64,000 nucleotides of DNA from assembly GCA_964016885.1 (NCBI GenBank), contig OZ024742.1:277760001-277824000 (forward strand), in the 5' to 3' direction. The number at the start of each line of letters is the position of its first letter. The stretch's first letter is position 1. Positions 2,073-59,669 of this stretch are shown here, one piece after another. The stretch comes from Eledone cirrhosa (Eukaryota). Under the pieces are notes generated by a model, which made no database searches, was not told the DNA's origin, and saw only the letters and a program-made list of their open reading frames with translations. Position numbers and translations under genes: made by a program.

Positions 2073-2270
2073 ATAGGAAAAAGTATGACCACGACGGCAG
2101 AGCTCAAGCCGTTTCGACGGCTATTTCTGGACGTCCAGAAATAGCCGTCGAAACGGCTTGAGCTCTGCCGTCGGGGTCATACTTTTTCCTATTTCCCACT
2201 CTACTACCCTAAGTATTGAGTACTCTGGTGCGTTATGGTCCATCTGGTTCCTTACCACAATTCCTTTGTT
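2073..2270. repeat. Fold-back pseudo-LTR fragment of PLE family 1 (60-bp arm palindrome plus ~80-bp tail)
   Basis: 2073-2132 is the reverse complement of 2133-2192 (1 mismatch, no spacer). Homologous to 59189-59326. Flanked by (TA)n. Confidence 0.9.
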
Positions 2271-2306
2271 ATATTATATATATATATATATTTATAAAAT
2301 ATTTTG

Positions 2307-2368
2307 TATTTTATCTGATGATAGCGTACCAACATTTTTGGTACCCTTGAAATATATATAATACAATA
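2307..2368 (+). ncRNA. Minimal type I hammerhead ribozyme (slightly degenerate)
   Basis: tattttat-CTGATGA-[ag.gtaccaa/ttggtac.ct]-GAAA-tatata-TA-atacaata; stem I 7/8 bp, palindromic stem III. Confidence 0.7.
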
Positions 2369-3067
2369 AATATGGTTTTATAAATATAGTTTCCATTTAT
2401 TTAATATCATTGTATATATATATATGTATATATATATGAGAATAGCATTAAGAAAGATGCTGTGATTACATAAAGCGTTTATTCATTATAGTTATTTTTA
2501 AGGCTACCCTTATGCAATCCAAGATGCAGTGTTTGCATTTGTTGCTTGTATGGGAACGATTTCGTCAGATGAATATCCATTTTACTCATACGCACACACA
2601 CACATACAAATATATATATATGGGGAGACTGGTATGCATGGGTGACTGCTTGTCTTCCATAAACAACCTTACCCGGAATTGTGCCTCGGAGGCACAATGG
2701 TCATGCAGCCTGGCGGCTGTAGCGAAAGAGGTTTTATGGTTGACGAGGCTGAAATGACTGAAGACAGACATCTTTCTATTCGGCCAATCCCTCATCAACT
2801 TATTCAAGTTCCACATGGAAAGGAAGATGAGGGTGAAGAGGGAAGTGCTACCCCCTGTACGTTTGTAAAAAAGTGCGTGAATGGGCCAACTCTGACCACG
2901 CGCCTGTAGGCTGGCTGATTTGGAGATGATTGAGGGCTCCATCAACGTGTGCTTTAGGAGCTTTGGATGATTCAGGATTGGTGGGCTACCTGAGTCAACC
3001 CTGGCTGTCCAACGGTCTACCAATACTGCCAATGATAACAATTATTATATTAATATATATAATATAG

Positions 3068-3292
3068 TGCGGTGGATTGGCAGTATCAGTAGGGCGTCGG
3101 AAAACAAGCTTTGTAGCATAGATTTATGACCCTTTACGTTCTGAGTTCAAATCCCGCGAGGGTTAGCTTTGCCTTTCATCCGTACGGGGCCGATAAAATA
3201 AAGCACTAGTAAGGCACTGGAGTAGATTTAATTGACTTTCCCCTCCCCACAGAAAATTGTTGGCCTTGTGCCTCTAGTATAAACAATTATTA
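3068..3292 (+). mobile_element. tRNA-derived SINE (family A)
   Basis: B-box GAGTTCAAATCC, body tttgcctttcatcc..ggggtcgataaaataaag, (tat)n tail; more than 10 copies in the window. Confidence 0.85.
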
Positions 3293-3700
3293 TTGTTGTT
3301 ATTGTTGTTATTACTTTTTATTAAAATCCTTTTCATGTATATATTTTATTCTATTCATTTCCGCTTATAAAGAAGTTCTGTTATCAATTAGCTGGAAGAA
3401 AGATGACGGCCCGTATGTCAGCCACGTTAAATGTTTTTGTCAGTTACAACAGCACGCAAATATCAAGTACTGCAGGGCACACTAGAACACACGATGGTTA
3501 TAGCATGACAAAAGTGTATCAACTTGTCTCTACTACTTCAATGTAACACACCATCAACACGTCGTCTCTACTATAGTTAAACAATCAGAATTTATCTAAG
3601 ATATTTACATGTTATTGAATGATTCTTTGTCAAAATCTTTGTCAAAAGATTCTCTTCTTTCATGTCGCCGTTAATAAGGACTTAAGAGAAACAGGCAGGC

Positions 3701-3885
3701 ACGCACGCACACACACACACACACACACACACACACACACACACACACACACACACACACACACACACACACACACACACACACACACACACACACACAC
3801 ACACACACACACACACACACACACACACACACACACACACACACACACACACACACACACACTCTCTCTCTCTCTCTCTCACACA
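3701..3885. repeat. (CA)n/(CT)n microsatellite
   Basis: Direct reading. Confidence 0.98.
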
Positions 3886-57064: not shown

Positions 57065-57102
57065 CGAGCTGAGGATCCGCTAAGCTGAAACAATTTTTCT
57101 CG
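57065..57102 (+). ncRNA. Minimal hammerhead in the 3' pLTR (degenerate)
   Basis: cgag-CTGAGGA-tccgctaagct-GAAA-caattt-TT-ctcg. Confidence 0.6.
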
Positions 57103-57328
57103 GTATGGTGAACTAACTGTTGTGTAACCACTTCTACCAAACTCGTCCCATGGACTGAGTGCTCTACCACTATGGATATTACCTTCCAGTGTTCTACCAC
57201 TATCTCTCTCTCTCTCTATATATATATATATATATATACCATATATACTATATATATTTATATATATATATATATATATACCATATATACTATATATATA
57301 TATATATATATATATAGGAACCAGTAAG

Positions 57329-57422
57329 ACCCCGACAGCTGAGCTCAAGCCGTTTCGACGGCTAATTCTGGACTAAATGAACATTTATCCTGGTATTTAA
57401 ATAGCCGATCTTCTCAAGGGGT
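57329..57422 (-). ncRNA. Type I hammerhead, U3-A8 variant (mirror copy)
   Basis: Reverse complement of 59140-59233. Confidence 0.78.
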
Positions 57423-59139
57423 AATTCCATATATGGTCAAAGTGATTGTCAAAAATCAGTAGTAATTCTGTGGTTGCAAATTAGTAGGGGAGATGGTGGC
57501 TAAACCTGCCAGTAGGAGAAAGAGGGGAGGGGGTGGAGTAGACCCAATCAAGCGTTGGTAGTGCCAGCTACAGCTGGGCATGAGGTCAAAGAAGATACAG
57601 GGGAGGGGGAGGGGGAGGAAGTCGGAACGGTAGGTAGAACAATGGGGGGTAGAAATAGGAAAGAAAAAATACTGAGAGTGAAGGAAAGCAAATAAGTGTA
57701 AAGAAAAAATTAAATTCTACGACCTAGGTGTCAGGCTATTGTTAGGCGAGAATAAAATAAAGAAAGAAAGAAAGAAGTAAATAAATAAATAAATAAATAA
57801 ATAAGGAAATAAGTATAGAACTAGGTGGGACGAATTAGGCAAGGACCCTTTTAAGAGGTATAAGTACGTAAATGATACGGTGACTGGTCAACAAAAGGGG
57901 CCAAAATACTAAAGAGACTACCACGAAATAAACAATAAAGGTTTCCATCCCGGGCCAGCAACGACCCAGTGCAGCAAAGTGAACTTGTACGACATAATAA
58001 TTCTGAGTCCCGAGAAAAATATATACTAATGCTAACTCTAAAAGATCTAAAACAAGCTACATGAAAGTTCGTACGAAATAAAGGTAGAATACGGAGAAAT
58101 AAGTTCAGAATCCACCCCGCCCAGAAGAAAAGCGAAGCAAGAAATACTGAAACGAAAAAAATAAGGCATAAGTGCCACTAAGAAATATAGAGGGCACAGA
58201 GAATAGTGGGAGCGGTCGGAAAAGGGGGGCAAGTATCCGGGGTCTAAGCCAACTGCTATAAAGGGCGGAGTCCGCCAAATCTATCAAAGACTAGGGGAGG
58301 GGGGAGTGGGGGTACTAAGGCTACATGGGGCCAAAGGGCAGCCTCGGGTGGGCGAGAAAAGACGCCGACAAAGGAGAAGAGCTGGGGTAGAAGGACAAAG
58401 GAGAGAGGGGGGAAGGAAATAAAGGATGCGATAAATGAATACAAAGAAGATCTTACGTCTTCCTTGGCAAGCAGGGGTTACCCATTGCAAAATCGGCAAC
58501 TGGGGTGTTATAGCCCTAGTCTACCCCCCCGGGTCATTATGGGGTTTGAGGGCGAGGTAAGTCCTACGCAATCTATGTTTACATGCAGTAACCAGTTCAT
58601 CTTTCTTGTTTAGGAGTAAACCTTTATTGTTTATTTCGTGGTAGTCTCTTTAGTATTTTGGCCCCTTTTGTTGACCAGTCACCGTATCATTTACGTACTT
58701 ATACCTCTTAAAAGGGTCCTTGCCTAATTCGTCCCACCTAGTTCTATACTTATTTCCTTATTTATTTATTTATTTATTTATTTACTTCTTTCTTTCTTTC
58801 TTTATTTTATTCTCGCCTAACAATAGCCTGACACCTAGGTCGTAGAATTTAATTTTTTCTTTACACTTATTTGCTTTCCTTCACTCTCAGTATTTTTTCT
58901 TTCCTATTTCTACCCCCCATTGTTCTACCTACCGTTCCGACTTCCTCCCCCTCCCCCTCCCCTGTATCTTCTTTGACCTCATGCCCAGCTGTAGCTGGCA
59001 CTACCAACGCTTGATTGGGTCTACTCCACCCCCTCCCCTCTTTCTCCTACTGGCAGGTTTAGCCACCATCTCCCCTACTAATTTGCAACCACAGAATTAC
59101 TACTGATTTTTGACAATCACTTTGACCATATATGGAATT

Positions 59140-59233
59140 ACCCCTTGAGAAGATCGGCTATTTAAATACCAGGATAAATGTTCATTTAGTCCAGAATTAG
59201 CCGTCGAAACGGCTTGAGCTCAGCTGTCGGGGT
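59140..59233 (+). ncRNA. Type I hammerhead, U3-A8 core variant
   Basis: acccc-TTGAGAA-gatcggcta..tagccgtc-GAAA-cggct tgagctc agctg-TC-ggggt. Confidence 0.78.
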
Positions 59234-59669
59234 CTTACTGGTTCCTATTACCCACTCTACTACCTCAAGTATTGAGTACTTTGGTGCGTTATGGTCCACC
59301 TGGTTCCTTACCACATTTCCTTCGTTATATATATATATATATATATATACCATATATACTATATATATATATATATATATATTATATATATATATATATA
59401 TATATATATATACCTTATATACTATATATATATATATATATATATATATATATATATATATATACCTTATATACTATATATATATATATATATATATATA
59501 TATATATATATATATATACCATATATACTATATATATATATATATATATATAGAAGATATGGTATATATATATATATATATATATATATATATATATATA
59601 TATATATATATATATATATATATATATACCATATATATATATATATGTTAGTTGTGTATTAACATATCA

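Follow-up and report, generated by a model that had tools for sequence, protein, structure and literature searches.

Paired inverted arms with two fixed internal end points in Penelope-like insertions of Eledone cirrhosa, and their likely origin by twin priming

Why should the two arms of an inverted insertion stop at different points? The question is raised by a window of 64,000 nt from Eledone cirrhosa (contig OZ024742.1; the surrounding genome measures 3.0 Gb), in which an earlier note had described ribozyme-bearing insertions in (TA)n, with one arm ending shortly past the cleavage site of a hammerhead ribozyme and the opposite arm continuing through a tail. The six insertions and the solo tail that it listed are all present and, as it claimed, belong to three families, here called A (2073, 26069, 50818, 52003 and 57314), B (14958 and 41178) and C (55288). 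Their motifs mark them as pieces of Penelope-like elements (PLEs) of the Hydra clade sitting in (TA)n tracts. In genomic copies of these families the arms end at two different fixed internal points, and the insertions probably arise by twin priming on the RNA of the elements.

Most of the sampled copies lie in the first 50 Mb of one chromosome, and loci outside the window are labelled L with a number. Positions are counted from the first base after the predicted ribozyme cut (position 0), with the natural full-length family A copy L131 as the reference. Genome abundance is given as exact-match motif counts across the genome.

Outer ends and the pairing of arms

Outer ends of family A were collected at 98 loci among the first 100 matches listed to an anchor upstream of both ends. 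Forty-three of them lie at +19 (site 1, the tail-less end) and 39 at the end of the tail (site 2), while one copy reads through and 15 end elsewhere or are diverged, so that two fixed points take 82/98 ends. TATATA is found within 40 nt in 97 of 100 tail-anchored copies, a sample used for the flanking TA and the share of solo tails, compared with 15% of window positions. Random end points and a lack of TA enrichment, which the earlier note held to be incompatible with its rule, were not what these samples gave, and the rule stands; both the targeting of (TA)n and the formation of palindromes are well supported by the genomic copies. The identical stop reported for 2073 and 57314 lies at +19 in each (shared TAT counted), with arm matches of 59/60 and 628/628, respectively. 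Most ends in the window meet (TA)n, but 14958 has none, its tail end abutting an older family A-like 3′ untranslated region (UTR), and the end at 57203 meets (CT)n first.

The earlier note had placed one priming event internally and the other at the tail end. Full-length copies of families A, B and C run past the tail into the 5′ UTR and the open reading frame (ORF); hence both sites lie inside the element, with TA after each. In the full-length family A element TAT follows each site, in family B TATAT or a single T follows site 1 and TA follows site 2, and in family C the respective sequences are TA and TATATA. At least 2 nt of TA homology is present at 6/7 junctions against a background of 0.32 per site (p~0.005 by hand, on sites that are not fully independent). 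The TA microhomology that had been invoked for internal priming is thus there, but it does not suffice to choose the site, because only two of the four TAT sites within +0..+129 of family A are used as ends and the two others, within the tail, are unused. A small hairpin with an ACTC/GAGT base lies 6-8 nt past site 1 in all three families, except at the minor family B site. A similar bulged hairpin follows site 2 in family A (z -3.4), and a bulged hairpin is visible in the published Hydra-2_Amil sequence.

Tails are present as described, with a length of ~65-80 nt instead of 70-80 nt. About 5/100 tail-anchored copies are solo tails truncated at site 1, like that at 26069, and would fit a site-2 cDNA joined directly at the site 1 TAT. 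At family C ends the element is often followed by (CT)n and then by (TA)n (e.g. window 57204-57217; L189, L230, L238, L297), in 19/106 cases versus 2/253 in family A, and at least four family C insertions have (CT)n at both ends. This may reflect slippage on a CU-rich template at initiation or later growth of the microsatellite. Assembled contigs of other sequencing runs, which may stem from the same sample, have (TA)n loose ends at the same two sites; the single run annotated as RNA (share 0.06) does not extend over the region.

Tail-less and tailed ends are combined one of each in 92/96 typed two-armed insertions, whereas free choice of site would predict about half mixed pairs. Mixed ends were found in 31/31 fully typed short pairs of family A (39 found, 8 with one arm untyped or tail-truncated), in 13/13 long or ORF-associated family A pairs, in 25/27 of family B and in 23/25 of family C. 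Eight loci (L151, L156, L157, L160, L167, L177, L251, L254) are duplicates of one family B locus and three (L158, L159, L161) are satellite; neither group was counted as independent insertions. In these three a unit of ~60 bp, which stems from the ribozyme and site 1 region of family B, is repeated in tandem.

The two arms of a pair resemble each other closely. A 9-nt subfamily bulge is common to both arms in 26/39 pairs versus 11% expected, and the within-pair identity was reached by 0/10,000 permutations. Their lengths follow no fixed order: in family A (n=31) the tail-less arm is longer in 13 pairs, the tailed arm in 11, and 7 are equal, and in the 57314 insertion the tail-less arm (1304 nt, reaching the ORF end) exceeds the tailed one (~710 nt). 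In L138 and L140/141 both arms are longer than one unit, L021 and L024 have deletions in one arm only, and arm joints in family A are often blunt or have extra bases. Since the longer arm may be of either type and neither is limited to one unit, two separately primed cDNAs are favoured over a fold-back. The fold-back form reported for all six insertions holds generally, but 52003 barely qualifies: its tailed arm starts at ~+8..+13, there is almost no arm overlap, and its short arm ends 3-4 nt too soon, next to a (CA)n tract. In L133:1604-3054 one arm jumps back repeatedly to +52, giving three short direct repeats that resemble template switching.

Inner ends, ribozymes and RNA templates

The inner ends are also confined. 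In family A 108/129 arms end at -29..-50, with peaks at -40..-42 and -45; 10 of the 108 sit at the anchor limit, and some values of -45/-48 are overextended by a few bases. In the tail-anchored sample 22 inner ends at -102 and a few at -54..-100 are artefacts, caused by the inverted arm mimicking the 5′ half of the ribozyme, and the inner ends of that sample were excluded from the counts. Across the genome the exact-match counts of family A fall from 59,950 at -28 to 6,956 at -77. The peaks coincide with sites that we take to be initiator (Inr)-like, 25-29 nt after a presumed TATA-like box. Family B arms turn ~30 nt after TATAAATA, with 25/27 gaps of 23-63 nt, and in family C the counts drop from 8,789 to 1,373 over 48 nt, below what are presumably NRF1-like and ETS-like motifs. 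Arms of ORF length, which pass this point a second time, stop there in 0/21 and 1/21 cases of two sets (1/42 in total).

Judged from these end positions, the inner barrier is likely the 5′ end of one class of RNA, which is favoured over a structural stall because a fixed stall should affect the first and the second pass alike. Circular or multimeric RNA without such a barrier is the likely template of long and tandem copies. Circles would account for the second-pass reading and for arrays such as L131-132, but such copies could also derive from linear read-through RNA or from template jumps between the RNA 5′ end and a ribozyme-cut 3′ end over a 41-nt redundancy. An origin by these routes instead of circles is a real possibility that falls short of probable: the RNA in question would carry the redundancy -41..0, tandem source loci exist (L131-132) and L128 starts at -39, yet second-pass stops at -41 should then be frequent, whether jumps occur with a constant probability or linear RNA is made from the same promoter, and the single stop among 42 arms does not bear this out.

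A stall in hammerhead stem II, or the later collapse of long palindromes, could also produce the inner pile-up while leaving twin priming intact. The family A barrier does lie at the top of stem II. We nevertheless regard this as rather unlikely, as the second-pass arms hardly ever stop there, the family B barrier precedes stem I and again lies ~30 nt after the TATA box, and collapse would not select a single position.

The ribozyme cut sets neither insertion end. From the predicted cut to site 1 the distance is 17 nt in family A, 10 or 21 nt in B and 36 nt in C, and three equal windows around the cut hold 554, 445 and 233 hairpins in the genome counts, without a peak at the cut; the ribozyme linkage of the ends proposed in the earlier note is not borne out. 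The cut was also tried as a candidate inner end and rejected: ~7-9/100 tail-anchored arms start near it, yet the genome counts have no peak, and G/C microhomology confounds the assignment. Not all six insertions bear a hammerhead as had been stated. A scan of the insertions detects complete ones only in both arms of 57314-59326 (57417, 59145) and at 15098, all predicted to fold as three-way junctions, whereas 2073, 50818 and 52003 hold only the 3′ half, as short family A stubs in general lack the 5′ half, and the core of the family C copy in the window is mutated. An Rfam scan had no hammerhead among the matches listed (150 of 181), where microsatellite-driven miRNA-like matches were found instead. 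The U3-A8 core of family A is a variant described in PMC4209133.

Proposed twin priming and its rivals

How could one of each end be obtained? In the mechanism that we propose, the element protein, likely as a dimer, would cut both strands of the (TA)n tract, and each broken end would be extended on element RNA, one from site 1 and the other from site 2, before the two cDNAs are joined head to head. Small bulged hairpins in the RNA, located 6-8 nt downstream, would likely set the sites, and the primer would be assisted by UA pairing over 2-6 nt. Hairpins of ~200 nt are likely run-off products at the start of an ordinary mRNA primed close to its own 5′ end, and long or tandem copies likely come from the circular or multimeric RNA without barrier. 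If the ribozyme has any part, it would be in the production of these templates and not in the setting of the ends. Twin priming is familiar from LINE-1, in which both target strands likewise prime on element RNA, giving an inversion. LINE-1, however, primes at the poly(A) end and at a variable internal site and its cDNAs cover different parts of the element, whereas the two sites of the present families are fixed and internal, and the same sequence is covered by each cDNA.

Two priming events per insertion, as the earlier note supposed, are well supported by the genomic copies; that both use a single RNA is favoured by the near-obligate pairing. A stricter version is tentative: twin priming would be obligately asymmetric, with a dimer on two hairpins of one RNA, capped mRNA would lead to dead-end ~200-nt hairpins, ribozyme-made circular RNA would be the productive template for full-length and tandem copies, and the family C (CT)n might arise by telomerase-like slippage at initiation.

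Several observations weigh against twin priming as set out here. Like-ended pairs exist (4/96 typed, plus the two-tailed family A copy L028 outside the set). Homology amounts to just 1 nt at the most frequent site 1 of family B, and TA at both ends is equally compatible with endonuclease cutting of element DNA. The hairpin downstream of site 2 is clear only in family A; that of site 1 is weak by energy (region z -0.64), and its upper stem is absent from the minimum free energy structure of the main B subfamily. In family C the inner ends scatter widely, with gaps of 16-126 nt. A single RNA would require the trailing reverse transcriptase (RT) to displace the leading cDNA, and matching arms would also result from a pair of RNAs transcribed at one locus or from subsequent gene conversion. 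Finally, the anole Poseidon element PAc initiates in vitro without homology at priming and without a difference between strands in start site, and the one-of-each rule is not seen in the PAc experiments covered (PMC11167929).

PAc is at the same time the closest biochemical parallel. According to the portions of Frangieh et al. 2024 (PMC11167929) used here, PAc nicks both strands and extends them from two internal RNA sites, between which the tail lies; it needs no ribozyme cut, and a dimer is predicted; inverted arms are not treated in these portions. PAc starts inside the ORF, while the sites described here lie in the 5′ UTR, mostly have TA homology and are paired one of each.

The PAc result also bears on a model in which a TA-specific GIY-YIG endonuclease cuts a double-stranded intermediate at two staggered TA sites after reverse transcription, as suggested for tails in a passage of PMC8557442. 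TA at both ends in all three families agrees with it. We consider it improbable, since the tail boundaries of the anole element are RT start sites (PMC11167929, in part), only 2 of 4 nearby TAT sites are used and the first-pass inner barrier is left unexplained. Self-priming, in which one cDNA or antisense template folds back and copies itself, was proposed for PLE palindromes in PMC3846280, as far as its relevant passage goes, and would explain near-identical arms and centres that are perfect palindromes (2073), but is the least probable reading and hard to square with the arm lengths, the arms beyond one unit, the joints and the one-arm deletions of the families studied here.

The elements, their relatives and the window

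Family A has a unit of 3531 bp with a 3′ UTR of 1.2 kb. The single ORF of L131 (717 aa) starts at +190 and comprises RT motifs followed by a C-terminal VIYQ...AYIG (GIY-YIG). The tail is accordingly read as 5′ UTR because the ORF starts only at +190; the tail as the start of the ORF was considered and rejected on the position of this ATG. Families B and C likewise continue beyond the tail into ORFs, and these have an N-terminal motif in common with family A. Near the N-terminus family A has RLRWR (one conservative change from RWK). In family A DKT replaces DKG (SDKTGNLY), and the CxCx5C linker is CNCPDRSIC in A and CSCRKPAAC in C. The assignment to Hydra proteins rests on these motifs and on likeness by eye to published ones; the family A protein resembles Hydra-1_Obim along its N-terminal half, and family C is 33% identical to family A over 236 aligned positions. 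A Pfam search of the PLE proteins of these families gave no match, and the CCHH motif inside the endonuclease was not evident by eye in the alignment of A and C, which contains no canonical PLE endonucleases.

The families are abundant: two family A motifs have 59,950 and 49,258 exact matches, family B has 39,239 (satellite and duplicates included) and family C 8,789. A 41-aa query gave 150 scored matches in the genome, of which many lie in open frames of ~784 codons and some are arranged in tandem, and many intact ORFs are near-identical. The array L131-L132 (G000:C1:437196500-437216499) comprises ~4.5 head-to-tail units of 99.9-100% identity; one of its ends is tail-less, and it includes a single inverted arm with a tail. 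One (TA)n tract often contains copies of families A, B and C nested end to end (L020, L180, L213, L293).

Hydra-clade elements with a C-terminal endonuclease (EN+), among them Hydra-1_Obim, insert in (TA)n and bear hammerheads, as stated in passages of Craig et al. 2021 (PMC8557442). The families described here share the single ORF with RT and GIY-YIG, DKT, CxCx5C, insertion in (TA)n and hammerheads, here predicted, in the pseudo-long terminal repeats (pLTRs). They differ in the family A unit and 3′ UTR lengths, in RWR for RWK and in a U3-A8 core with long stems. Hydra-clade elements are generally under 3 kb, a trait that we treat as descriptive and that family A exceeds because of its long 3′ UTR. 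The passages of PMC8557442 on this clade contain neither end-pairing statistics nor an inner-end pile-up.

Canonical PLE insertions comprise partial tandems, an inverted 5′-truncated copy and an optional tail at one end (legend of Fig. 2 in PMC8557442; passages of PMC3846280). Head-to-head arms, the tail at a single end and TATA plus Inr-like motifs in the pLTR are common to both, whereas the tails here measure 65-80 nt instead of 30-40 nt, pairing is near-obligate and most copies are ~200-nt stubs. Non-LTR retrozymes, for which passages of PMC7761336 describe type I hammerheads, circular RNA intermediates and a proposed mobilisation by PLEs, were rejected as an identity of the stubs, which are the ends of ORF-bearing units and in family A lack the 5′ half of the ribozyme. 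The stubs derive by truncation from the ends of coding elements; their joints vary, most contain half a ribozyme, and circles are a deduction in our case.

Earlier publications already cover the insertion architecture, the bias towards (TA)n, the ribozymes and the two internal start sites. In the accessible literature, with most subscription papers including older Penelope work outside this scope, no paper turned up that describes PLEs in terms of twin priming, obligate end pairing or 5′ run-off. The feature is real and general, and its mechanistic reading is a likely and testable refinement. A passage of PMC8557442 names the origin of the inverted arms and tails of PLEs as an open problem. 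The PLE RT is the sister group of that of telomerase. Sharp end rules in three families, together with many intact near-identical ORFs, give exact predictions for an in vitro test. If true, twin priming would take the place of self-priming, and the choice of template might become a function of the PLE ribozyme. Double-stranded RNA may also arise from the self-contained hairpins, which number in the tens of thousands, and a passage of PMC5625713 ties such palindromes to A-to-I hyper-editing.

The features of the window are collected in the table.

Table. Elements, arms and candidate signals in the window
Feature	Position	Strand	Remark
Family A Hydra-type ORF (RT, start of GIY-YIG region), 5′-truncated at ATG against (TA)n, frameshifted	1..2027	-	94.7% to L131
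(TA)n target tract	2028..2075	.	
Family A tail-less arm, -40..+19	2073..2132	-	mapped on L131
Family A tailed arm, -40..+99, head to head with 2073..2132	2133..2272	+	mapped on L131
Older family A-like 3′ fragment (ORF end, 3′ UTR), 3′ end interrupted by family B insertion	13418..14957	+	3′ boundary by eye
Family B tailed arm; outer end without (TA)n	14958..15092	-	
Family B tail-less arm, complete type I hammerhead (core 15098, GUA triplet)	15093..15150	+	
Family A solo tail, +17..+100; (TA)n adjoins it both at site 1 and at site 2	26069..26154	+	
Family B tailed arm with short or degenerate second arm, TA on both sides	41178..41298	-	seventh case, missed in the earlier note
Diverged family A-like hairpin insertion with tail	50818..51008	+	
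Diverged family A-like insertion: tail-less arm and tailed arm truncated near +8..+13	52003..52153	+	
Family C tail-less arm	55288..55458	-	
Family C 5′-truncated broken ORF, 3′ UTR, mutated hammerhead, tail; then (CT)n, then (TA)n	55459..57203	+	
Family A tail-less arm, -1284..+19, complete hammerhead (core 57417)	57314..58617	-	mapped on L131
Family A tailed arm, -612..+102, blunt joint to other arm	58618..59331	+	mapped on L131
Complete type I hammerhead, U3-A8 core, predicted cut after 59228	59134..59245	+	
Hammerhead loop II segment with presumed TATA-like box (59159-59166) and Inr-like sites at the A residues 59184 and 59188	59159..59188	+	from sequence; predicted RNA start where short arms end
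Site 1: TAT after end of hammerhead stem I	59246..59248	+	
Bulged hairpin 8 nt past site 1, candidate priming signal	59254..59277	+	
Site 2: TAT at tail end	59326..59328	+	

The ORF copy at 1..2027 is probably a separate insertion in the same (TA)n as the 2073 hairpin. A single insertion comprising both is unlikely, as (TA)n replaces +20..+189 and the identities to L131 differ. At 2027-2030 the copy is truncated exactly at the ATG, and AT is common to the ORF start and the (TA)n tract.

Other repeats lie nearby. A fourth hammerhead-bearing family ends at (TA)n at 6629-6745, and the same sequence adjoins family A copies in L030 and L092. Another repeat (50492-50638, 51745-51901, 4576-4630) has a hammerhead-like core (51784) and ends at microsatellites, and two imperfect palindromes (27747-27847, 47055-47107) are without (TA)n flanks or an obvious hammerhead. 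Other RT ORFs, of non-LTR type, occupy 39395-41026 and 47238-49196; the latter matches RVT_1 and zf-RVT and sits within the repeats 46278-46867, 49238-49852 and 51348-51746.

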